DNA of 55,564 nucleotides, the filler included, from Sluysia triapertura (taxonomy: Eukaryota), in assembly GCA_046118255.1 (NCBI GenBank). It is 4 parts of 4 records of this genome, joined end to end, with 100 filler letters (N's around TTAATTAATTAA, not from the genome) between each part and the next. Parts side by side here need not be neighbours in the genome. Positions count along the whole stretch, not along the records: positions 1 to 10,936 come from JBJNIA010191285.1; 3 more parts are not named here. One strand, 5' to 3'. How positions within the stretch are numbered: position 1 is the stretch's first letter; each line of letters begins with the position of its first letter. Made by a program: the position numbers and the translations under genes. The notes beneath the pieces are model-generated. The model was not told the DNA's origin and ran no database searches. It worked only from the letters and a program-made list of their open reading frames with translations. This document shows, in pieces, positions 2,653 to 47,562 of the stretch.

Positions 2653-3047
2653 CTTTAATTTAAGTTAATTGTAATTTTAAGTTAAAATAATGTTACTAAT
2701 TTTTAATTACATACTAGTTTTATTCAATCTCAGTTTAACGTAATTTTAACTTACGTATTAAAATGATTTTTATTGGGCTTTACGTTCTTAAAGTTTGATT
2801 TTGCATTCTCTTTATAGATTCTCATTTAAAACGACTATCCATTTAATTTCAATTTAAAATTGGTTAATATTTATTATTAAATTTGAATTTATATTAATTC
2901 TATTAACTCTCATTTTAAGTTGATAAAAGCATTATAATGATAATAATTTTAATTTTTATTTTAAGAAATAAATTTAAATTAAATGGATTTTAGATTTTAT
3001 TTAAAATTTTGAAAGAAAATTAATGAATAATATGTTACTTTTTCCCC

Positions 3048-3487
3048 TCATGGTATGTAAGCTTTATCCCAAAGCTTAAAAGGAAGCTTATGCTTTTCGG
3101 AAAGAAGATTTATATAACGCACTGGATTCTTAGCATATGTTCCAAATGATTTGTAAAAGTTTTTGATCTGTGTTTGTCTTTTGCGTCGACGTTATGAAGT
3201 CAATGCAGGTGATAAATTAGATGGAGGTGGAATAGGTATATTAATATGATATTTTGGTGTCTGACAATATGTGGTAGGTGTAGAAGTTAGCCGAAATTCG
3301 AAGAAATTACGAAAGTAACCTTTAAAGAATAAGGGATAACCTAGTATTTCGGTTCGACAAAGAGCACAGGTTGGAAATTTCGTAGTATTAAATAGACTTA
3401 CTGTGCATTTATAATCACATTTACGATTACAGGAAAACTTTCAACATAACAGTCATTTAAACAATTTTTACAAATTGGACAAGACAT
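3048..3487 (-). pseudogene. Decayed RING-finger (C3HC4-like) protein gene within an LTR element
   Basis: Manual translation: MSCPICKNCLNDCYVES/[frameshift]SCNRKCDYKCTVSLFNTTKFPTCALCRTEILGYP..., giving CxxC...C...CxxC...CxxCR RING spacing, with Arg at the His position. One frameshift and one internal stop. Confidence 0.7.
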
Positions 3488-3691
3488 AAATTATAATTCG
3501 CTAAATATTGAAAATAAAGCGACCAAAAGAAAAATATTAACTGATGTACAATACAATAGTGGGCCGATCATGTGCCGCCGTAAGGTATCGAGATCGGAAC
3601 TTATGAAAACTATAATAAAATGGCATACAATAATAAAAATATAATATTAAGAAAAAATCTGTATATACAAATGCGTTATGAATTAACCTTA

Positions 3692-4012
3692 CTAGTTCAT
3701 CATCATGGAATTGCAGCAACAATTCATTGGATATATAAGTGCTAAACCAGTAATAGGATGAACAACTACACTGTTTAATGCTCCTATGGTATCTAATCCA
3801 TAATGCATGATGTAGGACAATTTCTAATAACTACGAATGTAACTATAATTCTTCGATCGAAAATGTCAACTTCGTTTGCGATTGTTCCAACTACGGGTAC
3901 TGCACGACCCATGCAATTGTAATGATGCGAATTGTTGTATATTGTACGGGGCAGTGGTATCAAGAAGGGCATGAACTAGTTTTTCATTGATTTCTTTGTT
4001 CTGCCATACATA
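3692..4012 (-). pseudogene. Retropepsin (Ty3/gypsy aspartic protease) remnant
   Basis: INEKLVHALLDTTAPYN (ALLDTGA-like) ... CMGRAVPVVGTIANEVDIFDRRIIVTFVVIRNCPTSCI/GLDTIGAL (ILGxD-like). Two frameshifts; lies directly downstream of gag. Confidence 0.75.
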
Positions 4013-4252
4013 AAGTTTGTGGTATTAGGATTTCCTAGCGTTAACAATGGTAATGGATTAGTTATGATTGGACTTTTTTGTCTTACATAGACTTTTTTGG
4101 GTTTCGACCAGCGAAAAATTGAAATAATAATAGAATTCTATTATCAGTAGTTTTATTAATTGAATTGAATAAGTGAGACTTCTTTTAAATAAGATAGTTT
4201 TGCACCGAGATATTTATGTTAAATTTCGGTGTTGTAGTGGTCAGGGAAGTGG

Positions 4253-5366
4253 TTAGTTATCTGAATTATTCCCTTCTACATGAAATTCATTATCGTCATA
4301 GGAATCCGTTGTTATTTCATATGTGAAGTCGTAATCACCTTTTTCATAGGGATAGTTGAAATTTTCTTGGTGATCCTGGCAAATTATTTGACGGTATAAA
4401 TCTTGGTGACCCTCTTCTAGGAAACTGAGTTGGATAATTGTTTCCTGGAGCTGCATGAAATTGTTTGTTACTTTCGTAAGATTTGTAATTGTTTTTATTT
4501 TCAACAAAAGATTTTTTAAATTATTTAACTTATTATAATCACCATTATTTTGCGTGATTTTGGACTATTTGCTTGTTCTTGAACCATGTTTTGTATTATT
4601 GATTTTGGTGTTTCATCGCCATAGCTTACTTATTTTACTTGATCTCTCCATTATAATCTTATTCATTTCAGATATTACATTTATATTATGTTCTTTTTCA
4701 TTGATTTGTTTTTCTAATTCTTGATATCCTTCAGTATTAGAAGCTGTTAATAATGTTCCCATATTCGTTTATATTCATTTAATAAATTTTTGTAAGTTTT
4801 TTAAATTAAATTTCTCTTTTTTCTTCCTTATTCGTTTTGGACGGATACGTTCTTTCTGCTAAGATCCTTAATTGATACGTATTTTCTGCAACTATTGTAC
4901 TCTCTCCCTAAAAAGTCGCTTACTTAAATTCTTTATGTCATCCCCTGCTATATCCTTTATAAAAAATAATTTCAATTTTTCCCAATCTTGTTTTGCTGTA
5001 TCTGGTATAAATTTAAATACATTATCTACGTGACCAGTTAAACATAATACAAATCTTATACATTTTTCATTCATAATCCAACCTAAAATTTCTGCTTCCT
5101 CATAATACTCAGCTAAAAAGTCAAATAATTTATTTTCATTTCCAGAAAATTTCTCTGTTTTAAGCTCTGGTTTATATATTTTCATAGCAGATATAAGCTC
5201 TTCCATCTGCCATATTATCAGTCATTTTCTGCTTATGTGTAGTTTCTTTGGGATTAATTTCTTTGTAATGTAGCACATAATGTAGCGGTTTATATTTATA
5301 TGTTATTACAGGTTTATTCTCTTTATCTGGGTTTGTGTTATAATCAACATAACTTCTAAGTTTCAC
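4253..5366 (-). pseudogene. Ty3/gypsy gag (capsid-like) remnant
   Basis: ORF 4892-5206 KTEKFSGNENKLFDFLAEYYEEAEILGW...KCIRFVLCLTG...KQDWEKLKLFF fits the retrotransposon gag pattern. N-terminal part (5172-5366) is frameshifted; the C-terminal part is broken by stops. Confidence 0.75.
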
Positions 5367-5488
5367 TATTCTAAGGTTCTTTATTCTAAAATCTCAAAGG
5401 TAATATAAAATAGGTAATATAATATATTAAAACTTTTAATAATTTTATTACAACTTTATATTTTATAACTTACTTATGAGCACCGAGT

Positions 5489-5507
5489 ATCCTCAATCTA
5501 GGCACCA
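5489..5507 (-). promoter_or_regulatory. Primer binding site, elongator tRNA-Met-like
   Basis: Minus strand TGGTGCCTAGATTGAGGAT starts 1 nt after LTR end ...TTTTACA. Its complement reads ATC-CTCAA-TCTAGGC-A-CCA, matching T-stem, acceptor strand, discriminator and CCA geometry. A splice-donor-like AAGTAAGT follows. Confidence 0.75.
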
Positions 5508-5508
5508 A

Positions 5509-5895
5509 TGTAAAATGTAAAATTTATAACTTACTTTATTGTACTAATTCAAAATACTTCTGCTAAATACTAGTGCAACTGCTCTAGTGATATTTTCTCT
5601 TAAAAGATTTCTCTTGAGGTACACTTTATCATTAATCGAAGCTTTCTTTATTAGCTTATTCTTAAAATATTCTCTAAACTTCTTTAGTACATCTATTCTG
5701 TCTTCTATCGTGAATTCAGATACTTGTTTAGATGGTTTCAAATGAAAGTGCGAAGTAAGTTTTTATTTTAATATTCGATAAAGAAAATAGAACCTTGCTC
5801 TATTAATAATATGAGCTCAAACGCTAAATTTACATTTTACTAATATAATTTATAATTTCACTTTCCTTTTGGGACTCTATCTTCAACTTGTAACA
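5509..5895 (-). mobile_element. 5' LTR (~387 bp) of the gag-protease-RING element
   Basis: Minus strand TGTTACAAG...TTTTACA termini directly upstream of the PBS. No second copy found in the contig, so the 5895 boundary is inferred. Confidence 0.6.
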
Positions 5896-6036
5896 AATTA
5901 ATGAAGCTAAAATAAACTAAAATTTATTCACTATAACAATTTGAAAGTTATTAGATATATCTACTGAAACAATGATAACAAAAAATATGCAGTGTTTATT
6001 TTTAATGTTCTATCAAAAATTTTTATTTTATCAATA

Positions 6037-7330
6037 TTATTCAGACAAAATATAATATATAATAACATATTTGATAATTATAAAATAACTATTAATTTCG
6101 TATAGACAAACTTTATAAGAATTTAACTTGATTGAAAATATTTCTTTTAAAATTATTTTTAATATTATTCCATAATTTAAAGAGATTTTAAGGTCAACAA
6201 AAGACAAAACTTTACAAGATGTAAATTTATTAATTACTATTACAACTAAAATTTTAATTTTACTTGTCATATATCTACACACTGCATTGATCCTAATCTT
6301 TAATTGAATATCTAAAATAAAAACAACATTTAGATAATTGCAAATATAGACAAATAAAATAATTACGTTAAGACTTTTCGCTAACAAATGAATCATTGTT
6401 ATACTAGACCAATCATCTCGTTTTTGTTTTCCGAAATGACACTTGGTTGTATCGTTTATTATTTCTCGAAATCTATAATAAGGTAGCAGGGATGTTGTTT
6501 CACCAGGTCGATAAGAATCTGTGGTTCTTTCAGTAACCAATCTTGACATAAAACGATGACAGTTCCAAAATCCTATTTTTACTTTAAAATATCTATCTTT
6601 ACTGTAAACTACTACATTTACAGTAACGTACTTTCTGCATTTGTATAAGAGAGACTTAACTAATGGTAACATTAGAAACTGTTCAGGAATCAAACAGAGT
6701 TCCATAAATTGTAATTTCGGATTTTTTGAAAATATCTGTAAACTGACTGTTGCGGTTCGATAATGAGATAGAAATCATGTCCTGATGGACGATTGGCTCT
6801 TTAATGTCTTCAATCAACGTATCATATCTAGTATCCGAATGAATATCTACGAACTGCCAAACGTCTTGTGCAAATATGGCATTCCAAATAAGATCGTATT
6901 TATCAACTTTAATTTCATCCGCAGAACAATAATCTACTACTTTATAATAACCGGTTATTATTTCCCAAGATAATCCAGCATAATTACACATTACCAAAAT
7001 TGAAAGGGCATCTGATACTTTAAAGTCTTTTAATTGAAATAAAACATGCATAGGCACATGTGCTGTCATCCATAGAAATATTAGTCGGGCTTTTTCTATT
7101 GCTTGTAAATTAAATCGATATACCAAATACCAGATTAAATCACGAATGATGGATATTTATTTTGACTTACTAGAATAATATGAGAATCGCCTTTTACGAA
7201 CACTGATGGATCGTCATAAATTTGATGTTTCAAATGACTTGGTGGTCAGGCAGTAGAGCTTAGAACTGTCTACGAAATGTTTTGATGCTAACAGAGACGT
7301 TTGGAATTTATCAAATTTTGTTATCATTGC
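6037..7330 (-). pseudogene. Disrupted cargo ORF with an N-terminal BTB/Skp1-like region (family A, copy 1)
   Basis: ORFs 6683-7126 and 6037-6705 overlap as if frameshifted. RLIFLWMTAH...LKDFKVSDALSILVMCNYAGL resembles Skp1/BTB helices; the GETTxL motif is shared with the region near 45890. Confidence 0.4.
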
Positions 7331-7369
7331 ATTTTTTCTTTTCGTAAAATTTTTGGTACTATATTTTAA

Positions 7370-8729
7370 GTATTAAATTGTGGTAAGTGTATATTTTATT
7401 TATAATTTGGATGTTAATTGGTGGGCAGTTAAAAATTTAGCGAGACGAAATAAAAATACTAATGATTGAGTGAAGAGCCATCATCAGTATTGATATAAAT
7501 GTATTTGCAATGATGAGTATTGTCAATACTGATGATGGTAGATACTCTCATATTTATGTAGTTCGTAAAATTTTCATAATAATAAAGAGATTATTTATAT
7601 GACTAAATAAAATTATAAAATTTAATGTTAATAATAACAATAATGTTGCTGTTATTATTAATACACATTCTTTCTTATCTTACTTCCTTCTTAACACATT
7701 ATAAATTGAAATGGAATAGAAAAATGATAAAATTGAATGCAATAACAACGATAACAAGATGCGCGATGTTCAAGCTATTGTTGTTATTGCATTGCATAAA
7801 CTTGAATTCTTTAAAACTGTACACGATCTTCCTTTGATTCTTCCAGATTTCTTGACATTGTAATAATTTTAAAATGTGTTTAGAACTAAAGTTTCTGAGA
7901 AGAAATTGCTTTGAATGAATTGGTAAGTGTAGTTAGCGTTTCAAGATATGATAGTTGATTTAAGTCGTGACATGAAATAGAGAATGTTAGAATGAGTTCT
8001 TAGATGGTGATTAAAGTTCATAATTGAAAACGACGTTTAGATGTTGGAAGATCGTGGATATAAGGCCTATTGAGAAGATTGAAATTTGGTAAACGTAAAG
8101 AGGCAACTACAATACAACTCTTGGTATATTTAAAATATTATTGTGCAGTGTTTTATGTAATTTGTTTATTTGTTGTTTTTAAAAGGTATTGTATGGAGTT
8201 GATGGTGATTATGCAGAGACAAAAGGTGAATTTAAGGTGTTGTAATTGATTCGAAGTTGTAAAGCAAATAAGTTTAAATGTGGATATTATTTGGTTGTTA
8301 AGGGTGTTGAATTACGTGTTTTGGATAGGTTTGTTGGTAAAAGTTGATGGTATTAGATGTAACTGTGGTTTGTATATTATGAGTTTGTGAATATGGCTTA
8401 GTTTAGGCAAATGAACTATTTTGTAAGTGTGTAAATATTAAAGTGTAAAATGAAGGATTCGAAAGTATTGAGTGGATTATCTCGAAGGTGTTTGCTGTTT
8501 GATTATTATGAATGTCGAGTAACATGTTTTTGGTGGATTAGTTGGTGTAAATTGGTAACGTTGGGTGTAATTGTGATTTGTATGTTGTGGAATTGTGGGT
8601 ATGAATTGATTTTAGTAGGTAAACTGTTTTGTATATATGTAAGAGATGAATGTTTGAGTGTTAGAGTGTAATGAAAAAAGATATTAGTTTTTAATAAAAT
8701 TTTAGTGGTTGTGAAGGTTGGCCACCACA
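7370..8729 (-). mobile_element. Family A LTR-like/leader segment, copy 1
   Basis: Starts TGTGGTGGCCAACC on the minus strand. Clearly homologous by eye to the reverse complement of 43765-44850; strong G/T versus C/A strand skew. Confidence 0.7.
7478..7538. ncRNA. Conserved 61-nt stem-loop (pre-miRNA-sized; function unknown)
   Basis: CCATCATCAGTATTGATA / TGTCAATACTGATGATGG forms an 18-bp stem with one G-T pair. The homologue at 44672-44730 has a compensatory A-T to G-C change. Confidence 0.4.
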
Positions 8730-15249: not shown

Positions 15250-16175
15250 TTAATTAGTAGATATTTTTACACATGAATTCTACAACTGGCTATTTTCTTT
15301 ATTTTTATTTTTGTCTTGTTATTTAAAAGTTTTCTAAGTGCTAAGTGTAGTACAATTTTCGTTATAATTTAGAATGGGTTTTAAAAATGGGTTTTAGTAA
15401 TCTTTAATATAACCAAGTTAAGCTGACCATATTTTATGGTCCGTTGCAAATTTTTTTCAAGATTTTCAAAAATGAAATTGTACAAACTACAATAACATAA
15501 TTGGAGTAATTATTTTAGTATAAGAAAGATAAATATTAAATTTATCCAATATCAATATATATAAATTCATTAATTTCGATTTTATCATACATATTATCTC
15601 ATAAATTTATAGTTTCAGTTAGGTTTTGATTAAATGCTTTCTTTTATGAAATAGATCTTTTATTATTGGGAGGTAAGGAAGGAATCATGCTTTCATTAGC
15701 CATTAAACAAAACTCAGGTACAAAGTCGTTCCCACATTCACGATATTCAAGTATCACACGTACGGAATCTATTAAAGTATTTCTACACCTTACTGCAACT
15801 GTCAATAGATGGCGTAGTAAAATACCAGAATCATAATTTTCGATTGACATATGTGATCTTTTTATTTTGTTAACTGATGATTGTGTTGAATGGAATAGTG
15901 CTAATGTTAAAATATCTTCAATAACTTCTTGTTATTTCAAAATTTGTGGATTGATTTGTAAAACCTCTTTCACTTGCTTGATTCTATTCAAAATCATCAT
16001 TTTATCAACTCATTAACACACTTGATAATAAAAATCCGAACGTAGTATAATATAGTTTTGGTAGATAATGTTATTTTAGATGTGAATCAAAAACTTAATT
16101 AAAATTTAAAAACATGAATAACAACCGTACTAATGATGACGGTACTGGATACTTATAATGATGTTGGGTTATAAT

Positions 16176-17515
16176 TAGGGCGACCAGACGTCACGGATTT
16201 TAGTACACAGTCCCGTTGTGACGTTTGTCCCGAAATAGTCAGATATATTTTTTTAGAATGTTTCAATTACCAATAAAGAGATTGGTTGCATTATAAATAC
16301 ATTGTTATACCAATAAAGCAGAACGGGCAGTAGAAATACATCAGTATTGAAGCGTAGTGCGCGCTCTGTTTTGCCTAAGCATAGCTAGCAAATGTATGTA
16401 TGTCGTAAATGCTAACATACTGCATACATGCATGTGCACAATGTATTGGAAACGGCTGATTCTGAATTAGTGTACTTGGTTTACTTATGATGGTTAGTTG
16501 CGTCAAATCAAAATCTATATAAAAAATTATACAAATTTCCGTGCTTTTTCTTCCATAAATGCGGAAGTAATAAATTTCAAATTAAAAATGACTTCGAAGA
16601 AAAGAACATGTAAATTTACTAGTGATCTTGCCAATGAATGTTATTTCATTAAAAAACAAAAGATTCAGATTCAGACGTTCATTGCAATTCCAATTTTTCC
16701 ATTATTTATGGTGGGAAAAACAACATTATAGGACATTCAATCTGACAAACCTAAACGATGTGTATAATCGGCTGCTGGATCAAATATTATTCAATTTATG
16801 CATAGTAAAACTTTTAGTATTGAAGTTTGCTATTACAGAATCAGTTTTTTCATTTCATTTGATTTTTCTCAACCAGTCATTTTGGTCAATGGACAGCACT
16901 TTTCGATCCAAAATTGTCCTGTGCATGCACTAAAAAGGAAGCTATCGCAAGAAATGTTTTATACCTCACTCTATAGCTGAAATGAAAACAACTCTGGAAA
17001 AGATACTATTTCTTACATTATATTCTGATGCATCAAATCATAAAGATATAAAATCGTTTTATTAACTAATTAGATACTTTGACCTAGAAAAAAGAATTTG
17101 CGAGGAACAAAGAATAATATTTAATAATAATATTTGGACGCATTGAAAGCAATGGTTATTGTAAAGTGCAATATTTCAAAATCTTGTGAATAATTACAAA
17201 CTGTATTAATGACAACGATGAACTTTTAAGAAAAATACATGCTTCAGAAAATATTAATTTAAAAAATCTTTGTTGTATAAATGATAATTATGTTTTTGTA
17301 TAATCGTATTATCAAATAAATTTAAAAGTTTCTTTATATTGTATTATAAATAAAAAATGTAACAAAATCATTAGAAATTATATTTTGAATCTAAATGTTT
17401 GTTATCCTTTATTATCTACATATATTTAGCACATTTAAGTACGTAAAATTTTAATTTTTAATTTTTAAATTTGTTTGATGTCCCTGATTGGGATCGAGAA
17501 AATCTTGTTACCCTA
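16176..17515 (+). mobile_element. hAT-Blackjack-like transposon, internally deleted and decayed
   Basis: TIRs TAGGGCGACCAGA...TCTTGTTACCCTA with subterminal GTCCC motifs. Transposase N-terminal relics MTSKKRTCKFTSDL and NSNFSIIYGGKNNIIGH. No intact TSD. Confidence 0.75.
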
Positions 17516-18059
17516 TTCTTACATTAAAATAACAATTGTTAAAATTATGAAAACTTAAAAATTATGAAATTAACTTTAGTTTTTGTAATGAAATTAATTT
17601 TAAGTTCCTCACATTCACTTTTCTAATGGAAAATATTTAAGATCATCATTCCTAAACAAACCATTTCGCAAATATTTCAACCTCATTTTGGATTCTCCTC
17701 TTTCATAGCAATCAATTCATATTCAGTTCAATATTTTTTCAACATTCTAAATACAAAAAATTCAACATTTTTAAATTAAAAATTAATTAAAATTCGACTC
17801 TGCTCAATATGGAGGCTTTCCTCGCATAGACTCGGTCAAATCTTATCTTCATCGGAAGATCTTTTTTAAACAAATGCATATAAAGTTAGAAAATTTAACA
17901 TAGTATTCCGCATTCAAATGTTATTATTATTATTAATAATGATAGTTATCATTATTATTGTTATCCTAAAAACGCATAAACCCTTTATTTCTAAACTCAC
18001 ATGATCTGTCTTTTGAAACTCTTAAATTTCTAAACATATTAAACTTATTAAAAAAGAAA

Positions 18060-18789
18060 AACATTGAAAAATTATAGTTCTAATGCAGTACGGTAATGTA
18101 TAGGACGTTTAAAATGAATTTTTAGATGTTGATTAATGTTTTTAACTGAAGATAATGTTTGAATATTAGGAGACTGTGACGTAAAGATTGTGGTTTAGTG
18201 AATGTAAAAAAAGGTAAATTATAGCCCAACTTTTAGTATGTTGCAAAAATGATTATAGAATGTTTAAAATGTGATTTATTTTCTTGATATGTTTAAGTAG
18301 TGATGTCTTTATGTGTTGTTGAGAATTAAATGAAGCAGATCATGAATTTAGAATGTTTGAATTAGTTTGAAGATACCTGATGGTTAATTTCGAATGTGGC
18401 TGTGGTTAGATTATTCTGAAATGACAAATGAAATATTTTTAATGAATTTCTTAGAGTAATTTGATGGTATTATATGTGATTGTGGTTTGAATGTTATAAG
18501 GTTGAAGATTTGAAATGTTTTGACAAGTAAGAGTTTATTTTGGTGAATGAGAAAAGAAATAAGGTATAAAAACGGTTGTAACTAATTTTACAAGGTTCTT
18601 AAGTGGTGTTGAAACGAGTATGATTTTAATTATTTTTGTATTAATTGTAAATTTGGAAATGTGAGTTGTGGACTTTGGGGGTGTATGTTATATGTAACAA
18701 AAATGTTTTTAATGAATTTTTGAAAATGGGTAAAATATTTAGGATACATTTTTAATAAAATTTTTTAAGGTAATAGGTTGGCCACCACA
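18060..18789 (-). mobile_element. Family A-related LTR-like segment
   Basis: Same terminus TGTGGTGGCCAACCT as at 8729 and the same strand skew; the lower boundary is approximate. Confidence 0.55.
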
Positions 18790-19172
18790 ATCATAAAATA
18801 ATCATATAAACGAGAAATATATGTAGAAACAATCCTTGTGAAAGAGTGATTTCGAATGATATTTATTTAATCGAAAAAATTAAAAATTAGAAGTTGTCAA
18901 AATTAGAGAAAGGCATATCGAAAGTTAACTGGGGAAAAATTTGTCAAGAGTTGTGACATTATAATGATATTAGTAATTATAATGATAAAAATAATTATTA
19001 TTTTAATAAAGATAATAAGTATAATAATGATTAACAATAATAATAACGATAATAATAAAAATAAGTATAATAATTATTATTTTAATTTAATAACGCCCAG
19101 TAAAAACGTTATTAAATATTGCTATAGGCGTAACAATTTATTATTTTGATGAAGGATGTAACACCCAATTAA

Positions 19173-19250
19173 CACGTTGACGCATGCTTTTTTTCCACCA
19201 TTGATTACAAACAAAAATTGGTTCCTCTGGTCGCACTTTGCGGAAACGTG
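19173..19250. mobile_element. Minimal 78-bp piggyBac-like MITE
   Basis: TTAA|CACGTT...AACGTG|TTAA. Confidence 0.55.
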
Positions 19251-20744
19251 TTAATGAAAGTATCTAAATAGCGATCAACGCTAATTACGTTGGCAAAATA
19301 AAAATAAGAAAGAGAAATAATTAAAAAATTCTAACAAAAATTCTATTTGATATTGACCACGAACACTATTTAGCGATTATTTGATTCCAAGCAAGATTTA
19401 GTGGCTTTCCAAACACAAGCTTGGCATTGTTAAAATAATCGTAAGTTAATATTTGTTACTATGCATCCTTAAATAATATAAAATTAAAATCTTAGGCAAA
19501 CTCATTAATTTTGATTACTAGAATAATTCTAGTATTAAAGTCTGTCTAAAATTTTTATATTTAATATTAATTAAAATCCTTGATAATTTAATCTCTTATT
19601 TTTATCAATTTTGTACTACAATTCTTTTCTATAATAAAGTTTCGATTTTCAGTTTAGTTAATATTTAATTGAGTTTTAAGTATAAGTAATTTAGGAAGTT
19701 ATTATTACACATTTAAATTAGGTGATAAAGTGACAACGTTATTAACTAATTTTTTGAAAAGTTTATAAACCAAAAACACAGCCTAGCTTATGTTGTCTTT
19801 ATTTAAAATTATTAACAATAACTCTCGACATATTTTCAATAATCACAAAACAAATACAACTTATTAATAATTCATTAACCACAATATATTCTCAATATTC
19901 ACAATTATAAATCAATGTCCTTAAACAATCAAATAAGAAAATAAAATACTAAAAATCCTAGGGTAACACAATTAGCGCCCGTATTTAACAAAATAAATAT
20001 AACAAACTCATGGATTAACGAACCACAATAATAATAAAATATCATTATAGAATTTACTGAGCACAAGCATCAAAAGTGTTGCAGCAGCTTTCCTACAGGA
20101 ATCGAAGTTTTTACTTTACTCGATTTTCTGTTACTTATGTCTTCTGAATATTTAACAGAAATGCGTCATCTTGTACAGTAGTAAGATTAAAAATTGGAAT
20201 TTAGAAGTAATCACTTTATGTAATTACTTATTCTTTTAAGTCGGTTATAAGCTGACTAATTTTAATAATTGAATTTCAACGATAATTTCCGTTGAATTCC
20301 AAATTTATCATCTCCCAGCAATTACCCAAATATAATTAAAATTAACAAAGATAATTAAATATAACACATGCAATTATTTGTACTAAAAGTTTGCAAAATA
20401 ATTCTCTGAAGGGGAGTTCACCTAATAGATGCCACTTATATCTGGTCGAAGGAGTCTATTAGGATTTGATTTAAGAACTTAAAAAGAATGCTAGACGATG
20501 TCAATAGTTAAAATGTTCCATTATACTTTTTAAGAATCAACTCCATATCAAATTCAATAAATTAAACTAGCCGAATTATGGTCTAGTTTCTAAAAAAAGT
20601 TAAGCTAGCCGATTATTGCCTAGCGTACAAGTAAAAATAATTTAATAAGGTTAGACGTTGAGCTAGCCTATTTAAGGTCTAGCAAATAACTAATATTTTA
20701 GAGTTACAAAAGAAAAACTACTTTAAAAATTTTATTAAATAAGC

Positions 20745-21700
20745 AACTAACTATAACAAATAATGGCAAATGTAATAAATAGCAATAGTATCAATAAGTA
20801 TTTTAATCACTTAAGGAAGGAACTTCCTTAGCACTATTTTAGATTTTAAAAAGGAAATTAAACTAGCCGTTTAATAATTAATAATTTAGTCTATTTTACT
20901 TCTTCCCTTAAGATAAGAATTAAAAACCTTAAACAATAAACAAATTACTTGTTCATTGATTTAGAAATCATAAATTGACGATTAGAATTTTTCTTCTGGT
21001 ACTACATTAAAAATTCAGCAATTTATATAGCTAAATTTTTAATGAGATAGCCATATTGAAAATTAAAATTGTATTTGTTTAGGTGATTTAGAAAAAGAAA
21101 AGAAAATTAATTTAGAAAAACAAATATTTTAAATTATAAGAAATGAAATTAAAACTTTTATCACAAAAAATAAAACTAATTTAAAAATGAAACTATCTTA
21201 AAGTTTTTAATTCTTTTATAATAATATATAATATTTATAATAAATTCAAATATAATAAAACGTTCACGTTCTTACACAAAATTAAAATTTAGCATGAATA
21301 AACAACCGACTATAACAAATAATGACAAATGTAATAAATAGCAATAGTATCAATAAGTATTTTAATCACTTAAGGAAGGAACTTCCTTAGCACTATTTTA
21401 AATTTTAAAAAGAAAATTAAACTTGCCGTTAAGGTCTAGTGTCCAAATTAATAATTTAAGTTTATTTTAATTCTTCCTTCAAGATAAGAATTAAACCCTT
21501 AAATAATAAACAAATTACTTGTTTATGGATTTTGAAATCATAAATTGACGATTAGAATTTTTCTCTGGTTACTACAGTAAAATTCAGCCATTTATATAGC
21601 TAAAATTTTACTGAGGTAGCCATATTGAAAATTAATATTGTATTTATTTAGTTGATATGGAAAAAAACATTTTAAATTATAAGAAATGAAATTAAAAATT
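20745..21700. repeat. Tandem duplication, period about 559 bp
   Basis: CTATAACAAATAATG(G/A)CAAATG...TAAGGAAGGAACTTCCTTAGCAC... begins at 20751 and at 21310, with high identity over about 400 bp. Confidence 0.9.
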
Positions 21701-22988
21701 TCATACTTAGACTTAAACATCATAACATATATAAATTCAGTTTTACATTATAAAAAATTAATTAAATTAAATAATTAGCTGTCAACATGCTTCGTAATAT
21801 CTCATCATTAGTAACACTAATGAATCTCAACATTATATTTATATATTATTTTATCATATATTATTTTATCGTTTACAAGCACCTTTCATAAAATTATTGA
21901 ATCAAAACAATTTTAAATTAAATTAATTAATAAATGCACTTTAATATTTTCACGAGTAAAACCTCTCCTCGTATCTTTATTTTTATTTTAATTTAAATAT
22001 TTTTTAAATGTATTTAATTAACAAATACAATCTAACATAGTGATTTGTTTTATTCTTTTATTAATAAGTGTCAATTTTGTCCCAAAAAAGGAACTGAGGG
22101 TATGTATATTGTGTGTTGTTAATTAAAAATTATAGAGATAAATGGAATTAAAAATGTACTCTATAATTGAGTTTATTTCACTTCTAATTTTACAAAATTA
22201 TTGAATTTTGAACCAAGGATTGTGTTTAGTTTAGCATCACTGAGTGAAAAGCCGTGCGTTAGATTCTAACATTAAAGTTAAAATATTATGTTTCGTCCAA
22301 CGTCAGTCAACAGAAAGTCATGCCTAAATTCGAGTAATATTTTTAAAGGTAATGATTTATAATTACTTCGTTTTGCATTGATTATTTTGATTTAATTTTT
22401 CGGAAAAATTACACTTTTGGTTGCAAATTCAGTTAATTTTCTTAAATATTAATTAATTGTTATTTGATTTATGATTTAACATTTAATTAACATCTATTGT
22501 ATTAATTGATATTTTTGTAATAATTGACAAATTGTGTTATAAGAAATATATTTTCATATTTTAGTTTAATTTAATATTTTAATTTTGAGAATCATTTAAA
22601 ATTTGACTTTACTCAACATTAATACTTTTGCACGAATTCGACCAAATCATATCATATCTCATCAAAAATGAACTCATACACAATTGCAATTTTATAATTG
22701 TATTGCGCATTCAAACTTTATTTTAACGTATTTTTCTTTAATTAAGTTAACGAATTAATTTATTTTTGGAATTTATCATAATTCAATTATGAAATGATAC
22801 ATCAAAATGGATATCGTCAGTAGATAGTTAATATAATTTGTCAACAAAACTAGTCAAGTTTGAGAGGCATTTAAAAATGTTACATGCATTATCTATAGAA
22901 TTTTATAGAATTGTCGATAGAATTTTATGACAATTTGGCTTTACATTATATTAAACTTTTTTGAAGTTGTCCAGTAAAATAGTCAATT

Positions 22989-23088
22989 NNNNNNNNNNNN
23001 NNNNNNNNNNNNNNNNNNNNNNNNNNNNNNNNTTAATTAATTAANNNNNNNNNNNNNNNNNNNNNNNNNNNNNNNNNNNNNNNNNNNN
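22989..23088. other. Artificial contig linker
   Basis: N44-TTAATTAATTAA-N44. Confidence 0.97.
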
Positions 23089-23162
<74 letters not shown>

Positions 23163-23359
23163 TGCTATTTTAAAAATGACATCAATATAAATTGTTTTAT
23201 GTATTCTTTAGTCTATAATATTAATTATTTATTTATGTTCTAGTTATGTTATTAATAAATTATTAAATACATAAAATAATCAAAAATAATCAAATAGATA
23301 AAATAACATATCAAATGAACCGACATTTATATTAATTTTTTAATTGTGATCCATTTCTA

Positions 23360-23427
<68 letters not shown>
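23089..23427. repeat. (ATT)n at the contig start and (TAA)n at about 23362-23427
   Basis: Direct reading. Confidence 0.9.
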
Positions 23428-23428
<1 letters not shown>

Positions 23429-25229
23429 TATAGCAATAATTATGATGGATTACATTAATTAGAAGAACATAGTAATGTCAAGGTATAAAACGAGTTATAA
23501 AAATCAAACGTGTATTATATTGCGTACAGCGTTATTTCGGGAAGTTTTAATGATAACAACAAAAACAATAATAATTATAATAACTGAAAATTAATAAAAT
23601 CATTAAACAAATAATAATAATAATTGTAATAATACAGTAATTTATCTATAATAAATTTGCCAAAAATTACAATATAATATTATATTTTATTATATTTTTC
23701 TATTTTGTATTTTCACCGGAAATTTAATTATCAGCGACCTTTCAAATAGGCTTTTATCTAAGAAAATCATTTTAAAATATATAAATTATTTGGATTAAAA
23801 GTTGTAAAATCTGTTTTCAAAGGTTATTTTAAATAAACCCTTAAAATCTATTTTTTCAAGTTATAATTTAAGTATTTGTAAATTAAAAGAGTCTAATTGT
23901 TAACTTCTTGTTAAGGCTTGCACGCTAATACTCTGTTGACCTTAAACTTTGACTAAAAAATTTCTATGAACAAGCCCTTACAAATGTAAGATCTGCTCTT
24001 TTAAAATAATTCGTTTATGACAGTAAATTAATCACAACAATAATATTTTCGTAAAAGATAAACAGTAGCGTAAAATTATTAACAAATTAAATAAAAATAA
24101 ATAAATTCTGTTTTGTTTATTTTAAATTTTTATTTGTAATAAATGTTTGCTTAATAAAATATCGTTTGACTTGCTGATTTTTTATAGAAAAGTTTTTTGG
24201 GTAAATAATTGTATCGTATTAATATTGATTATACTGTTATAGACATTTATAATATTTAATCTTTTTTATCATAAATGAAATAATTTCAACTTTTTTATAT
24301 ATTATACTTAATACTTTGCAGACGATTTATTTTATTGCTAACTATACCCAGTGGCCACGTTTTTTGAGTCAAATATTTTTATGAATTATTATGTAAAAGA
24401 TTTATTTTCAAAATATATGATTTCTCAATATACATTAAGCCATTGTGGACAAGTAGATTTAAGACCTGCCTTTTCCTCCTTCTGTAACACTGTAACAGTT
24501 TTCATAACTATCATGTTCTAATATCTAATCGATATAAAAATCGAATTAGTTTTATTACTAAGAACCTGAGAATAATAACTTTTAATTCAATACGAAATCT
24601 ATAATCTCGGCGAATTAATTTTCTAGTACATTACTCCACTCCATGTGACAATGCAAAACAAGAATTGTCATTATTGTTCTTTGTAATTTTAAACAAAATA
24701 AATTTACTCTTCGAATATTTTCAATGTTATAATAATTTATAATAATTTAATAATAACTTATAATAATTTAAATGTTATAATACTGACAATCACTTAAATG
24801 ACTTACCAACATATCCTAAAATATTACTTATTATAAATAGAAAAATAACAATGCAAAATCAATGATTTACTTTAGTACATTTAAACAAAATTTCGATTTT
24901 GATTCTTAAACACATACTAAACATTTTCTTCATTCCTTTTTTGTAACTGTAAAATAATTTCTCCTAAAATGATAATGTTAGTTTTATTAATTGTTTTATT
25001 ATTAATTTTCTCAATTATTTGAAAAAATTATATTAATTTTCTCAATTATTTGAAAAAATTATATTAATTTCAGTATATTTTATTATCCCCAATAGTTATT
25101 TTGAACATTCGTAATCATATTGACTTCAAGGAAAACTATCTTATTTTTATTTATTAGCTGGCATCTCCGTTTTAATTTTTTTCTAAATGATTTGATATGT
25201 TTTTCAACATATTTTTCATTAATTAAATT

Positions 25230-26534
25230 TGCTGGGTGTTTTTCTTAATCTAAAAACCTAACCTACAGCAAAATAATTAATTATTCTGAGACTTAATAAT
25301 GGCGTACCTGTAAAAATTACGTGAAAAAACAATTATCAAAATTAATCGTACAAAATACACTGTGCCTTAACTTCAGTAATAATGGGCAACGTGTCGTTTG
25401 TGTCAATTAACAATACATAACTTAAAAACTAATTAAGACAAACGATAGCTTAAGGAATACCTAAATTAATATAAAAATCAAGTAAATAATGATGGTATAA
25501 AAACATGTTGTCTCTTATATCTTTACATCTTAATGTAATGATCGTTAAAACTTTTAAAACTTAATGAGATAATATTACAATCGATATATCCTAGATCAAA
25601 TTTATATTTAATTGCAAATTATTCAAAAAATAGAGTAATTATAAACTTATTTCATGTAAAAAGGATTCAAAAGTCTTTTAATATTTTTATTACACCAAAA
25701 ATAGGACTAAAATAAAATTAATATAAATTTATAAAAATCCAACGAAAAATAAATGTTAATAATACAAAAAATATTAAAAATGATAAATTTATAATAGCAA
25801 TAATAATTAAGCTATAATAAGGACCTAGCCAAAAGACTCTACCCTGTGATACTGATTTTGTCAATTATCTTATGGGCCAACTAAAGTTTTAATATTTTAT
25901 ATTTTAGTTTGATTTTATGATTGGCCTTAATGACCAACCATGAAAAACAGTATTTTAAGTGGATTTTATGGCTCTATGGAAGTTTATAAACTTATGCAAA
26001 TCAAACTTACGAATTTAATTAATAATATAATTTGATCTCTGGATTGAACGATCGAGTTGCTGCTGCTTAGGAAATGCTACCCCTCTAATCGAATGCTCGG
26101 GGATCGCACAATAAATTTAAGGAATTGAAATAAAAAATTTAATAATGAATTGGTTGATGATGAGCTGGATGGTGGTGCGAATAATCTTTTTGTGATGGCT
26201 TTGCTTGTAGATGAATTTCAAAATGGCGCAAATTTTTAATGGATTCCTTATTTGTTTGTGGTTTTTTCTTTATTTGTGAATGTCTTTATATATGTACAAA
26301 GACATCTTTTAACATTTGCATAAACAAATTTCTTTTGACCTACTTTTTGATTTATAATAATAATTTAATTTTTTTACAATTAAAATAATAAGTTTTTAAG
26401 TAATACAATATTTAATAAATTTTTATAATATTTTAATAATTTTTTTTCTATATAAAACCATAGAAATAAAAATATAAAATTAAATTTTTTTATACTTTTA
26501 CAAATTAATTTATTGATTTTATAATTTATAAGCA
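25230..26534. mobile_element. Family C dispersed repeat (possible long solo LTR), copy 1
   Basis: Colinear homology with 37064-38374. Both start TGCTGGGTGTTTTTCTTAAT and share an identical 40-nt block (25822-25861). The right end is approximate. Confidence 0.7.
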
Positions 26535-26662
26535 ACTATATGAATTGTTATTGAATAAAGTTTATAAACTTATTAAAGTTATTTAGTTACTTGAAAGTAA
26601 CGATTATAATGGGAATGAAATTTTCAATATTACCTTTTTATAATAGAAAATTTCTTTTTCAG

Positions 26663-41454: not shown

Positions 41455-43764
41455 TATTATGTACGACTATGTATAAGTTATGCTTCATTTCTATTAATGT
41501 TATCACATTTTTCAATCATTAATGTAGCGATTTTGTTTTCGATGATTAATAAAAATTTATTTAACATTCAAGAAGTACTAGTTCACAGTCACCATCGCTG
41601 GAAGGATATACAATTTCAAAGGCTTTTGCAATATTGACAGCATCTGAATCTTCTGTTTCCTAAGAAATGACCTATTCTTGGTCCAATCTAGATCATTTAA
41701 AATGCTTGTTTTCTTAAAAGGCTATGAAATTACCTTTTGAAAATTCTAAATTATTATGTAAAGATTTCCTTATTGATTTTGGGGATCCAAAAGTAGGAAA
41801 CAAGTATTCTAAATCACGGTAGTATTCAAACTTCAAAATATATAATACTGTTAAAGATATATAATATTAAAACTACTGTAAGTATTGTAAATATTGTAAA
41901 TTCGATTTTCGTAATTAATTTTTGCTAAATATTAATTTTTATTATTTTTGAAATTGTAAATATTTGTGTATAATTGTAAAAATTCACCATTATTTTAAAT
42001 GATAAACTAATAATTAATAATATAAATATTAATGTTTATTAAAAGACAGAAATTCCATTACCATAATTATTTATTTTCAAATAATTCAACCTTGATTTAT
42101 TTTTAAACAATTGAAATTCGAATAATTTAACCATCTATTTTTAAATATTTAGACCTTGAATTTTTACAAATCAGTCATTGGAATTTAACACGACCAAGCC
42201 TATAATAAGGTATAAAACAAATTTTGCTCACACATAATCATTAATTATAGTCGAAAAAGAATTCGATATTTGGAAGATTGAAATTTTGTTACGTGGAAAA
42301 TATTAGAAATAATTTAGTTGAGAAAACTTATTTGGTTTTTCGCTATTCGGACAATACAGTCATTAAATACGAGGAAATTCGAAATTTCGTTGAGAAGGAA
42401 TACTAAGAAATTTACTGCAGTTGATTATAAAGGACATAACTATCTCAGAATTTGAAAATACCTTTGAGTAAGCTTATTTTTGTTAAGTTTAAGACATTGT
42501 TTTATTGTCGTAATATCTTACTTAAAATCATCTATTTTTTACACACAAAGATTAACTCTGGGTCAAATTTGAATTTAAAATCACATTATTAAAAAATTGA
42601 TTATTTATATTATAAGTTTCTTGTATTCATTTTTAATGTTATATATATTTTTTTTAATTGTTGTATAATAAACTTTTGTTCGTTGAATAATTTATTATTT
42701 AAAAACGGTGAAAGTTAAAAGAATCGCATAAGAGTAAGTAACTTTAAAGGAATTTAGATCGAAAGAATTTAAGATTAACTTTGTTAAAATTTACTATAAG
42801 TATTGAAGCTCCGTTTTAAATTGATTATTTCCAAAAGAAATAAGACTGACATCTTGAAACATATATTGACCCTCACTATTACTCTTTTTCATCAAATCCT
42901 ATGTACGCGTCCTTTTTTAAGATAAACCGCACTACGTAGGCGAACCCATTCTTTTTGAGTCTTCATAATTGTTAAGCTAAGAAAAGCGAACACTATTAAC
43001 TTAGGGAATATATTTTATTCTTAGTGAAATCGTGATAAAATTCCAATTAATCTGCAATTATTCTTGAGCTTGTAACAATTTCTTATATGCCAAAGCTTTT
43101 TCAATTACTAATTCTTGAAATTTATTATAAATTTTTATATGCTGGTCCTCACTCTGGGCACCAGTTTATTTTGCTAGATTTTTCTTAGCTTAAGAATAAA
43201 TGATGAATGATTATAGTGAGTTCACAAACGGATTTAAACTTACCATTTAGGGCTAGCGTTGGATTTTAGAAGCAAATAAATATAGGAGGTCAAATAATAA
43301 GCTTATAATTTAGATGTTACAATTAAATCAATATTCTCAAAAATGCTTCACTAGATTATTTTTATAGTCTGTAAGAAAATATAACAGATTTTAGGAAGAA
43401 TCCGTTAAAAGAATTCACAAATGAAATATATATTATGGCGTCAATAAAATTCGACGATACACAAAACAAATTTTGATTTTATTCTCTTTAAAACTATTAA
43501 ACCTTTTATTGTAATTACTGATAAGACAAATGTTCTCAAAGTATATTAATGACAAAAAATATGACAATTTCATTATAATAATATATTACACAATTAAAAT
43601 AATAATTTTAACAGATATTTTTCGGTAGAACTTTTAAATAGTTCTAAAATAATTTAAATTATGATTTTAAGTCGAAAGTTACGAATGTACCTAATAGATA
43701 CGTTCTTAATGTAGTGGATAACCTTTATAACTGTTAAAATTTTAAAAGAAAAAATTAATTAAAC

Positions 43765-44850
43765 CTTCAACACTTTAATATTCACACACTCACCTCCTAC
43801 ACACTTACAAAACAGTTCATTTGCCTACACTAAGCCATATTCACAAGCCATATACAAACCACAGTTACATCTAATACCATCAACTTACACCAACAAATTT
43901 ATCTAAAACATGTAATCCGACATTAATAACAACCAAATAATATCTACATTCGAAATTATCTACTTTGCACCTTAGAATCAATTACAACACCTTAAATTCA
44001 CCATTTGTCTTTGCATGGTCACCAACAACACAATACAACACCATTCAAAAAAATCAAATAAACAAATCACATATAACATTGCACAATAATATTTTAAGTA
44101 TACCAAGAGTTGTATTGTAGTTTACCAAACTACACTCTTCTCAATAGGTCTTTTATTCACGATCTTCCAAAATTTAAATATACTCTTAATCAGAAACATA
44201 AGTCATTACCTAAAAGTTCATCCCAGTGTTTCGCATTTAATTGCATTGCATAACAAATACTATTATAATTGAAGACGTTAATCACACATATAAATGCATT
44301 CTAACTAATCGGTACTTCAAGATTATTAGTTTAAAATACGTTAGAAATCTAGCAGAATTAAAGGAAGATTGTGTACAGATTTAAAGAATTCAAATTTATG
44401 CAATAAATAACAACACTAACATGTGCATCTTGTTATTGTTGTTATTGCATTCAATTTTATCAATTTTTATTTCATTTTAATTTATAATATGTTAAGAACA
44501 AAGTAGTAAAGAAAAGAAAGCTCATGTGAAATTATCATAAGAAGTTTATGCGATTTTTAATATTTTTGTTCAAAAATAACATTAATAATAATAACAACAT
44601 TGTTGTTATTATTGTTATAAAGTTTTATTAAACTAATTAAATTTTTAAAAAATAATATAATTTGTTACTACCATTACCAGTGTTGACATTGCTCATCACA
44701 ATCATCATTATCGCGTCAACACTGACGATGACCAATCACTCGTCAGTACTATTTTAATAATGAAAATTTCGTTCACATTACTGTCATCCAATCAGAATAA
44801 ATTTTATTAAAATATTATTACCATAATTCTGATTGGATGACCAACCACTA
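43765..44850 (+). mobile_element. Family A leader, copy 2 (5'-truncated) with hairpin cluster
   Basis: Reverse-complement homologue of about 7370-8460. Hairpins at 44399-44449, 44581-44618, 44672-44730 and 44783-44841. Confidence 0.7.
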
Positions 44851-44971
44851 AACATGGTCTAAAAAAGAATTGTCATATTTTTATAGTGCTGGTTAGAAAG
44901 GACTCATTTAATTATATTACGAAGTTATTATTACTACTAATAGCAATTATCATTTTTATAGCTTCATTTAA

Positions 44972-46268
44972 TCAATAAAATTCGCGGATATTACTTTTAT
45001 GATTGATGATCCTGATAACAATTAAACAAACAATAAAATTCCCTTATGTTCAATTTCAAATTGTTAGTCCTATCATAGTTTTATCTTGGAACGAGTTTCC
45101 GAAAGACAATACAACCTTAAAGTTACAAGTAACATTTTATCTGATTGAAAATGATGATATTATGATTGAGTCGTCATTAATAAATAAACATTGGCAACAA
45201 CTGAGAATTATCTATGATAATACTGTTGTTAATTCGTCATATTCATTATTAAGTACTATTTCAAGATTTTGCAAACGTTTGGTACCTGCTTTAAGCTTAA
45301 AGTTATACGATTCAGTTTTATTGTATAGTTTAAAACCTTTAAAAGTATCGAACGAAACTAAATCAATAAATGCAATCGATGCTAGATTACAAAATTATCC
45401 AGAAATATATCACGTACAAATAAAATGCTTAATAGATCTCATCATTTTACCTATAATCTTCAGAGTCCGGTTTAGAATTACCGTTATTTTTAGTAAATGA
45501 GGATCCTAAATTTAATAAATTAAAGTTTATTTGGGTTCGAATTAGATATACGATTCAGAAGAATGTTGTTTCTAATAGTTTATATGATTTGATTTATTTA
45601 GTTAAATTGAGCATAATGATTCAACAAAATAAAGCCATCTGTATAGTTGATATTCAAAGTAGTACAACTGAGGAAAGTATTCCGGATCACTTAACTAATC
45701 TTATTCTAATATTTATAAATGTTTATCTTAACGACCCTGCGCACGACTAAGTTTTGTTACGATCATATTTCGAATTTGAAATATGTCGTCTTGTTCCAGT
45801 TAAATTGGTTCACATTGATATGCGTCGTGTCACAAGAAGATCCAAGAATATCAAGCTGTTTCAGAATGGAGACGATGATGGGCATGGTGAAACGACATTT
45901 CTAGTAATTTTTTATTTTTCTTGTTCATTTTTTATTTAAGTATTCTATCTTTTTTAGACCATAATCCCAGTGCGAGGCCTATTGAAGTACAGCAGGGTGC
46001 AGCCATAAAAATAATAGATTTAAATTTCGTGTTAGATGAAAATGTGAAAGTTACTTATTCTTATTTTAACTCAGTGTATAAATTAATAAAAATTTGTTTT
46101 TGTGAGTTTTATAAATATGTTGTCGATGACGTAATAAGAAATAATTTTAATTTTGCAAGAAATTTTCACGAAATAAAAAAAGGTCTTACGAATTACGAAC
46201 TTACGTATTTACAACCACTCAACGATAAACTTTTTAACGTTAACCTCATCAAATTTTATATCGTGTAA
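44972..46268 (+). pseudogene. Disrupted cargo ORF, BTB-like N-terminus (family A, copy 2)
   Basis: KFADITFMIDD/...FQIVSPII resembles a BTB start (SDVTF...SPVF). Downstream ORF fragments at 45003-45500, 45754-45939 (GETTFL) and 45921-46268. Confidence 0.35.
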
Positions 46269-46287
46269 TAAACTCTTATCAAACAAG

Positions 46288-46782
46288 TGTAAGGACCCTA
46301 ACATAACTTTATTAATTTAGTATAAAACAACACCACCAAATCCTTCTCAGGCAATTCAAACTATCTTACCAAAATTTCGATAAAAATGCATATATTCTTT
46401 GCTTTGAGACTTTATACACGATCTTTCTTTGCTTGTTTTGTGTTACTTAACATATCTATGTTGTAGAAATGAAGAGAGCTTTCAGTTTTGTGAATTTAAA
46501 GCGATAAGGTTTTTCTTCGTGGCTTTACCTTCTTTTATGTGATTGTTTCTGATATTCTGGCTGAAATAATATTATTGTCTGAAGTGTTATTAATATATGT
46601 ATAGTTTTGAGATGAAAACTTAGAATAAGGTAGACGTTAAGTAAATAATGATGGTGTTTGGTTGTGAATGTTGATGTAATTAGGTTGTTTGGGATGGAAA
46701 GATGTGGATATAAAATATTTTGAATTAAAATGTTTTGATGGTTTGGAGTATTAATGTTAAAGTTATGAGTTTGCCTACCACA
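46288..46782 (-). mobile_element. Solo-LTR-like element related to family A
   Basis: Minus strand TGTGGTAGG...CCTTACA. Contains the AAGATCGTGTA motif shared with about 7820 and 44370. No TSD seen. Confidence 0.5.
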
Positions 46783-46899: not shown

Positions 46900-47562
46900 C
46901 ATATCTCAGGTTCGATAGAGTGCGAAACATTACTTTCTACATTTGACAAAATTTTCAACACCGATCGAGTTCGTGTTATTGGCTTAATTTTGTTCCAAGA
47001 TTTAACAGCTCCATATATTGCATCCAACAAAGTCGTCCTTTAATCCCAATGAATCATAAAAGAATTTGGTTTTATGTGCAATTACGGAGACTGTAATTGG
47101 CATTCCTTCTGCTCGCTTTTGATTAAACCATTTAAGCATAGCTGCATCTAAATCTTCATACTTTTTCCATACTTTTCCGAGTTGAAGGTCCTGCATTAAT
47201 ATCGCAATCTCTTGTAAACTGCTCCAACTTTCTTTTTTGCTTAATTATATCGCGAACTGTTTGATCACCAACTCCATATTTCGATGTGGATTTCAATTAA
47301 CTGAAGTTTTTATTTTACAATCAGTTTGACTCTTTTTGCGATTATTTGACATTGGGATAGGGTATTTTTCTGAATTTAATTATCATAAGTTATCTTAAAC
47401 CTAAAGAAAAATAAACGATACATACCGGCAAATCAATAAAATTAAAGTTGTACTTCTTAATCTATATATATAAATGTGTGTGCGTGTATTTATTTGAACA
47501 ATTATGCATTTTCTAAATATTATCCACGGATAATCTGCACGGATAGTCGGTAGTTTATATTG
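46900..47562 (-). mobile_element. Tigger/pogo transposon remnant (5' end plus CENP-B HTH)
   Basis: KYGVGDQTVRDIIKQKRKL and YEDLDAAMLKWFNQKRAEGMPIT...AHKTKFFYDSLG; TIR-like CAATATAAACTACCGACTATCCG at 47562. Confidence 0.85.

Follow-up and report, generated by a model that had tools for sequence, protein, structure and literature searches.

The locus analysed here raises a question: Why should a mobile element of an animal genome carry, ahead of its cargo ORF, a cluster of near-perfect hairpins that have the size of microRNA precursors? The window, i.e., the whole stretch of DNA studied (55,564 nucleotides, filler included), joins four stretches of the AT-rich genome of Sluysia triapertura, the assembly of which amounts to 619 Mb in 263,945 contigs. 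Its first-pass annotation described a mobile-element leader with conserved, pre-miRNA-sized hairpins, possibly a small-RNA cassette. The reading that we prefer, and to which we give about an even chance of being right, is that the hairpins form a promoter-proximal inverted-repeat block working as DNA, with paired regulatory sites placed before a predicted CCAAT promoter.

The hairpins reside in a repeat that appears to be a solo-LTR-like unit, present in the window as two copies and one distant relative:

6063-8729, minus strand: copy 1, solo-LTR-like unit with TG at 8729 and its AAA end lost; homology to other copies runs from 8729 to about 6063
7800-8729, minus strand: shared terminal segment of copy 1; on the ORF strand it is rich in C/A and poor in G, and it contains an internal duplication with a period of about 208 nt
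43710-46373, plus strand: copy 2, a full-length member of another subfamily; its cargo ORF, at 45003-46268, is an orphan
17920-18789, minus strand: third relative, distant and truncated, with the same TG end, C/A-rich segment and HP2-like repeat

The analysis supports the original proposal that the repeat is a mobile element. Full units measure 2.4-2.8 kb, while shorter units carry internal deletions. They start sharply with TG, and 61 contigs of run X1 (contigs of unknown kind, used for depth and ends only) have loose ends at 8729. At the opposite end, every cargo class examined has AAA, with the last 40 nt alike across classes; the termini thus differ from the TG...CA of LTRs, but an imperfect 8-bp terminal repeat remains. 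Target site duplications (TSDs) have a fixed length within the 4-6 bp range of LTR elements: an exact 5-bp TSD flanks five of the 21 copies in which both ends were called by script, and one more has a TSD with one mismatch, several of these 21 copies having a lost or cut end and others not matching at the TSD. Exact 5-bp TSDs were recognised by eye in L187 and L004. The order within the unit is TG end, HP3, HP2, HP1, CCAAT cluster (with HP4) and cargo ORF. Hence the hairpins do lie between the LTR-like segment and the cargo ORF, as first annotated, but these are not separate segments, for a single TSD-bounded unit holds them all.

Of the 127 distinct copies in our collection, 102 gave a location for HP1, 108 for HP3 and 62 for HP4; HP1, HP3 and HP4 were not found in the relative at 17920-18789. 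The family likely counts thousands of copies, judging from the 1368-2478 candidates of a first look, the depth of run X1 (16,000-31,000 over the terminal kilobase vs 20 in unique flank, depth not being equal to copy number) and the 330 element ends that have TGG next by chance. The terminal segment (7800-8729 in the window) is strongly skewed, with 15-27% C and 4-11% G on the ORF strand; each of the 43 copies checked shows this strand skew in its terminal segment.

A search through 80 upstream and 53 downstream flanks of this fragmented assembly, and through a set of 29 downstream flanks, revealed no PBS, PPT or internal region that the copies share beside the element; pattern-matched ends also gave no shared internal region, either in the 100 listed of the 330 followed by TGG or in 51 of 51 followed by pyrimidine. 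Because no flank with a PBS or PPT emerged, U3 can be used here as a tentative label only, and the repeat may instead be an element of unit length that an integrase-like enzyme mobilises. In subfamily B, a PBS-like TGG motif 34 nt in from the end was rejected as a real PBS, since homology continues past it to the AAA end. Units of 33-34 nt make up this end in subfamily B, and each has a possible terminus as its last part (L104:2690-2750, L126); copies stop at different units, one has an extra unit, and the last unit opens with the PBS-like TGG.

A second LTR element adjoins copy 1:

5509-6058, minus strand: 3' part of a different LTR of about 1.4-1.5 kb, TG..CA, with a 4-bp target duplication; outside the hairpin element
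3040-5260, minus strand: broken gag-like, protease-like and RING-like frames plus a purine tract, labelled by eye from motifs

After this LTR part comes a PBS-like TGG motif, at 5507. The gag/protease region was considered as part of the hairpin element and then discarded, since it belongs to this second, canonical TG..CA family, which abuts copy 1 at 6058 in a junction present in one of the 127 hairpin copies, namely copy 1 only. The frames of 3040-5260 have no Pfam match, and neither RT nor integrase was seen in 3040-6058 (minus strand), which looks like a non-autonomous element of Gypsy type having a RING-like frame just before the purine tract; the same RING-PPT-LTR junction occurs in L068. 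Elsewhere the window contains a fragment of a Tc5/pogo-type transposase DNA-binding domain (47002-47244, minus strand; PF03221, E 1e-6), a local 430-nt tandem duplication (20738-21161 / 21297-21704), a dispersed 220-nt repeat (21749-21964 / 28362-28572) and, at a contig start, a 340-nt fold-back of ATT microsatellites (23089-23427).

The cargo of copy 1 can be described as follows:

6063-7332, minus strand: broken, intronless cargo ORF, related to transglutaminase-like proteins that we presume to be of KY/hillarin type

This cargo has no Pfam match, and a search with the window cargo protein among longer proteins retrieved none at E<=0.001. Its relationship is given by an intact host exon (L160:868-1620, minus strand) of a gene with the Transglut_core domain (PF01841, E 4e-10), which matches the cargo of copy 1 by BLASTP with E 3e-9, at 25-31% identity; the gene of this exon is a candidate relative of the cargo's donor. 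Among 114 copies with sequence past the block, KY/hillarin-like cargo is present in 55 and the orphan frame known from copy 2 in 32, which leaves 27 unclassified; this last group contains at least five further frame types, nearly all in sense, so that there are at least seven cargo ORFs overall. All 87 classified cargos lie in sense behind the block, likewise 14 of the 15 unclassified copies having a frame. A 372-aa frame of the copy 2 cargo type (B), taken from L104, had 0 matches among 1.84 billion representatives, and 22 other cargo frames had no Pfam match above cut-off. More cargo classes without Pfam matches follow the same block in L188, L202 and L207; in L212, L229 and L237; and in L145, in L203, in L231 and in L232. 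At the 3' ends of L104, L022 and L110, which represent both main classes, the cargo frame is open through the element end, with no stop in the unit.

The hairpins themselves, listed without strand, are:

7478-7538: HP1 of copy 1, with 17-18-bp arms and a 27-nt loop (90 of 102 located copies), showing the strongest covariation
7626-7663: HP2 of copy 1, a short inverted repeat of AAT/ATT triplets that varies in length (66 of 89 copies, 26-62 nt)
7736-7793: HP3 of copy 1, with 19-bp arms of AAC/AAT triplets and a 20-nt loop (82 of 108 located copies)
44671-44731: HP1 of copy 2, from folding
44581-44618: HP2 of copy 2, from folding
44399-44449: HP3 of copy 2, partly decayed
44783-44841: HP4 of copy 2, a paralogue of HP1 with two inverted CCAAT boxes

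All the stems reported for copy 1 were recovered in place, with fold z-scores on the plus strand of -7.7 for HP1 (7478-7538), -2.9 for HP2 (7628-7660, an AAT/ATT triplet-repeat palindrome) and -3.4 for HP3 (7736-7793). Those said to occupy the same positions in copy 2 are present too, but weaker (z from -1.1 to -3.8, by stem and strand), and HP4 of this copy had been overlooked. A filter requiring at least 14 of 16 WC pairs, a span of 45-75 and at least four G+C in the arm found five stems in the window vs 0 in each of four block shuffles. The pre-miRNA-like span of 58-61 nt was borne out, modal spans being 61 nt for HP1, 59 for HP4 and 58 for HP3, with stems of 16-19 bp; the hairpins thus have the 16 or more complementary arm positions and the length of about 60 nt that characterise canonical pri-miRNAs. 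The spacer between HP1 and HP4 is 26-69 nt (modal 51) and that between HP3 and HP1 180-379 nt. HP1 and HP4 align with a score of 61, exceeding all 500 shuffles, and their flanks are also paralogous. The 13-bp arms of HP4 have 134 perfect copies genome-wide vs 0 for the reversed control, and perfect arm pairs span 54-60 nt among the 50 matches listed; the HP4 hairpin is missing in 43 of 96 copies.

Since the inverted repeats are short and perfect, one could regard the stems as TIRs of tiny nested MITEs, or as products of chance. We consider this highly improbable, for the cluster is conserved as first suggested, occupying fixed slots in fixed order across the 127 copies rather than behaving as independent insertions; moreover, flanking duplications were not seen by eye, the paralogy between HP1 and HP4 includes their flanks, and the shuffles contain no comparable stem. 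Other hairpins were observed alongside the block. One of equal size class (59 nt, G+C-rich, 15/16 pairs), the loop of which contains a CCAAT box, lies outside the element at 1510-1568, and another of 52 nt (25394-25445) is found in one member of a 1.3-kb repeat pair of 67% identity (25230-26502 / 37064-38311), being decayed in the other; this pair lies in a stretch with an exon of a T-type voltage-gated calcium channel (26555-27487, plus strand). L203 and L207 have an extra short hairpin downstream of HP1, as well as an HP4 variant with a longer outer stem and further compensated pairs.

How is the pairing of the arms maintained while the family diverges? The compensatory change from A-T to G-C in the stem core, which the first-pass annotation had seen as one covarying pair between two copies, is real and marks a whole subfamily (AU in 19 and GC in 25 of 46 copies), and the 127-copy collection reveals far more. 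In alignment A2, which retains 87 of the 102 HP1 copies (leaving out 12 with other loop lengths, the inverted L168, L142 and L151), 8 of 18 HP1 pairs have changed on both sides and 94% of the cells pair, vs 21-63% in slid controls. Pairs with at least two WC types in at least three copies number six in HP1, two in HP3 and three in HP4. In the wider set there are 8 two-sided pairs vs 5.6 in shuffles (26/500 shuffles) and 67 cells vs 18.1, these cells counting copies and not events; subfamilies A and B only (46 copies) yield 2 two-sided pairs vs 3.0 in shuffles, hence no excess, so that the covariation signal needs the wide set. Between subfamilies, divergence is 0.15-0.37 in the arms vs 0.50-0.60 in the loops, while subfamily-level transversions per column are 0.03-0.15 in stems, 0.20-0.59 in loops and 0.36 in the control. 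HP1 and HP4 both keep the modal 27-nt loop; loop-length constancy is modestly above that expected from local indels, with modal shares of 0.88, 0.63 and 0.76 vs a control median of 0.79.

The loops of HP1 are inverted in two of 102 copies (L002 and L168), which points to template switching between the arms, and L017 shows one precise loop deletion. According to the available text of PMC8604942, template switching inverts spacers and homogenises arms, and has been linked to the conservation of inverted repeats, also by switching alone. Because template switching itself homogenises the arms, the covariation documented here does not require RNA; clear covariation in a repeat family can stem from arm-to-arm copying and is not a proof of RNA. 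Carried to its extreme, this argument would make the stems neutral inverted repeats that perpetuate themselves, fold-back duplications that owe their perfection to template switching alone and have no function beyond the CCAAT boxes, in agreement with the loop inversions, the precise deletion in L017, the triplet-repeat-like arms of HP2 and HP3 and the switching-only conservation just cited. We judge it improbable nevertheless, since conversion alone should not slow the net divergence of the arms so much with respect to the loops, and HP1 is kept in nearly all subfamilies.

Next to the hairpins in copy 1 lie two elements defined by their sequence:

7417-7421, minus strand: single CCAAT box in the HP4 slot, 85 nt before the cargo ATG
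7397-7404, minus strand: TATA-like stretch

Of 96 copies, 92 have CCAAT in the 200 nt that follow HP1 and 74 have it twice or more, the upstream background being 0.47 per 200 nt; CCAAT is also kept in 40 of the 43 copies without the HP4 hairpin. The cluster is situated 90-150 nt before the cargo and the hairpin block lies upstream of it, so the block is probably not the leader of the cargo mRNA as the initial label implied, and HP1-HP3 would probably sit upstream of the predicted promoter, outside the cargo leader.

This arrangement brings us to the preferred reading of paired DNA sites. Together, the terminal kilobase and the block of inverted repeats would serve whichever gene the unit carries as its enhancer and promoter, with NF-Y binding the predicted CCAAT boxes; the symmetry of the arms would be preserved by copying from one arm to the other when the element is replicated or reverse-transcribed, and selection on sites within the arms would slow their change. 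Promoter activity, NF-Y binding, factors at the arm cores, selection on the arms and LTR identity are all things that we infer. We take the TGACA core of HP1 to be a TALE motif and the AACAAT core of HP3 a Sox motif. The clustering of CCAAT boxes after HP1, their retention when the HP4 hairpin is lost, the sense orientation of the cargos and the failure of the RNA-strand tests presented below (G-U bias, MFE, wobble intermediates and basal stems) argue for such DNA sites, as do the loop inversions in L002 and L168, a template-switching product described in the accessible part of PMC8604942. Other features fit less well: the shared spans of 58-61 nt and the 27-nt loops of HP1 and HP4 would suit an RNA-processing ruler better, the spacing between motif cores is about 30, 44 and 30 bp, and arm complementarity extends outside any motif. 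Arm conversion, furthermore, should erase the persistent U-G pair of HP1 and the 14:0 ratio of HP3 pair 12 reported below. The geometry of DECA-CCAAT, namely GAnnGAC-11bp-CCAAT, is present in 0 of 127 copies and a TATA-like box in 14 of 96 only.

Could the hairpins work instead on an RNA strand, as small-RNA precursors? The basal stems of HP1 (classes A and B), HP4 and HP3 have 3-9 pairs, equal to flank-shuffled controls, vs the total stem of 35+/-1 bp, with a stable basal stem, that the available text of PMC9856966 gives for canonical pri-miRNAs. A loose count of at least 31 pairs in 57% of HP1, on the plus strand only, is explained by the shuffle control, and a lower stem of 7 bp, noticed by eye on the plus strand, did no better than flank shuffles. 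Among sequence motifs, UG at -14 occurs in at most 0.1 of copies, CNNC in about 0 and apical UGU in 0.03-0.19. The T4 runs expected of Pol III terminators just 3' of the hairpins have frequencies (ORF strand/plus strand) of 0.08/0.12 for HP1, 0.02/0.00 for HP4 and 0.39/0.02 for HP3, while T4 lies inside HP4 in 0.44 of copies; the hairpin spacers are incompatible with a foamy-type dumbbell of 111-128 nt. The Rfam search that had been recommended gave 0 matches at gathering score and weak ones only below it, the best being mir-301 with 28 bits vs a cut-off of 56. The pre-miRNA reading thus lacks its canonical features testable in DNA: basal stem, UG/CNNC, Pol III terminators and an Rfam family. 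The core of the HP1 3' arm, which we take to correspond to miR-8/miR-200 family seeds, is in the wrong position for a seed and lacking in subfamily C, a likeness ascribed to chance; C/D-box-like words in HP1 produced sub-threshold Rfam matches only.

Attempts at calling a strand gave a similar picture. MFE is better on the plus strand in 77/101, 55/61 and 81/99 copies, but shuffles behave likewise, the effect being compositional, and the G-U bias towards the window plus strand is not significant, the shared types standing at 22:11 where control mutation rates would predict about 1.3:1. Wobble intermediates at transition-compensated pairs show no strand preference in HP1 (15:21) and HP4 (7:7); those at HP3 pair 12 are 14:0 for G-U on the window plus strand. 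One U-G pair persists in 54 of 86 HP1 rows, and AATAAA is found within 50 nt of the TG end, on the window plus strand, in 25 of 43 copies.

These results bear on two other explanations. In the first, the element would encode a small-RNA cassette, with HP1 and HP3 (HP4 too) cut to RNAs of about 22 nt, by a non-canonical or cluster-assisted route, from a transcript that a two-way CCAAT promoter would probably drive in antisense to the cargo. We regard this as doubtful, yet grant it some probability in view of the 58-61-nt span common to the hairpins, the U-G pair that persists and the AATAAA near the TG end. The 17-19-bp stems, the covariation at 8 of 18 HP1 pairs and the G-U tendency to the plus strand are also in its favour, foamy viruses place miRNA cassettes in U3 (PMC6950176, available text), and cluster assistance can rescue suboptimal hairpins (PMC9856966, likewise). 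Weighing on the other side are the shuffle-like basal stems, the rarity of UG, CNNC and UGU, the few T4 terminators 3' of HP1 and HP4 against those internal to HP4, the dispensability of HP4 and the absence of an Rfam family; both arms, besides, change together, would-be seed positions included. In the second explanation, the stems would be RNA or single-stranded-DNA signals of the life cycle (3' genomic RNA, packaging, export or strand transfer), selected only in active lineages. The scarcity of subfamily-level transversions in stems, the retention of the block before very different cargos and the strong strand skew, which suggests repeated retrotransposition, are consistent with it. We find it rather unlikely, as no strand is preferred more than mutation bias would predict, one of the hairpins may be missing, and neither an autonomous partner nor a PBS or PPT was found among flanks and pattern-matched ends.

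On the preferred reading of DNA sites, the family would constitute a very abundant portable promoter, with one block placed before at least seven intronless genes in an unusual TG..AAA unit, and one cargo taken from a host transglutaminase-like gene. A more speculative proposal, which we advance tentatively and with a small chance of being right, is an antisense-transcribed cluster of covarying hairpins of about 60 nt, driven by a two-way CCAAT promoter, processed to small RNAs and coupled to host-gene capture; if true, it would extend the microRNA cassette of retroviral, foamy-virus-like type to an invertebrate transposon. Searches of literature listings and abstract openings brought up no report of this hairpin family or of such a transposon-encoded cassette.

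How does the element compare with known systems? The nearest to it in layout are the U3 cassettes of foamy viruses and the solo LTRs of giant Gypsy-like elements. As in the Pol III miRNA cassettes of foamy viruses and BLV, in the available description of PMC6950176, several pre-miRNA-sized hairpins lie in the upstream, non-coding portion of a unit resembling an LTR; unlike in those cassettes, they are 26-379 nt apart, form no dumbbell and have no T-run terminators on HP1 and HP4. Also unlike these viruses, no gag, pol or env was identified in the hairpin element. Canonical clustered pri-miRNAs (PMC9856966, accessible part) similarly have clustered hairpins of about 60 nt with at least 16 complementary positions and loops varying more than arms, but not the near-perfect 17-bp stems, open loops of 25-27 nt and co-changing arms seen here, which come with no basal stem or UG/CNNC/UGU. 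Template-switched short inverted repeats share arm homogenisation, spacer inversion and arms more conserved than their surroundings; those in the available text of PMC8604942 belong to yeast genes and bacterial intergenic DNA, whereas here a fixed four-slot block resides in a mobile element. The solo LTRs of planarian Burro-type giant Gypsy-like elements, compared by their description in the accessible part of PMC6431247, resemble our unit in LTR size (2.4-2.8 kb), TG start, short imperfect terminal repeat, 5-bp duplications, a family on the scale of thousands and accessory genes from the host, while differing in that our unit ends in AAA rather than CA and has the cargo ORF inside, running to its end; moreover, no internal region, PBS or PPT was found beside the hairpin element. 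The available portion of PMC11410931 contains nothing on termini. The DECA-CCAAT system of TALE, NF-Y and Sp2 (bioRxiv 10.64898/2026.02.16.706105, available text) is alike in having TGAC-type cores near multiple CCAAT boxes, its exact geometry being the one found in none of our copies. Finally, solo LTRs of flatworms are known to act as promoters (PMC4558846, accessible part).
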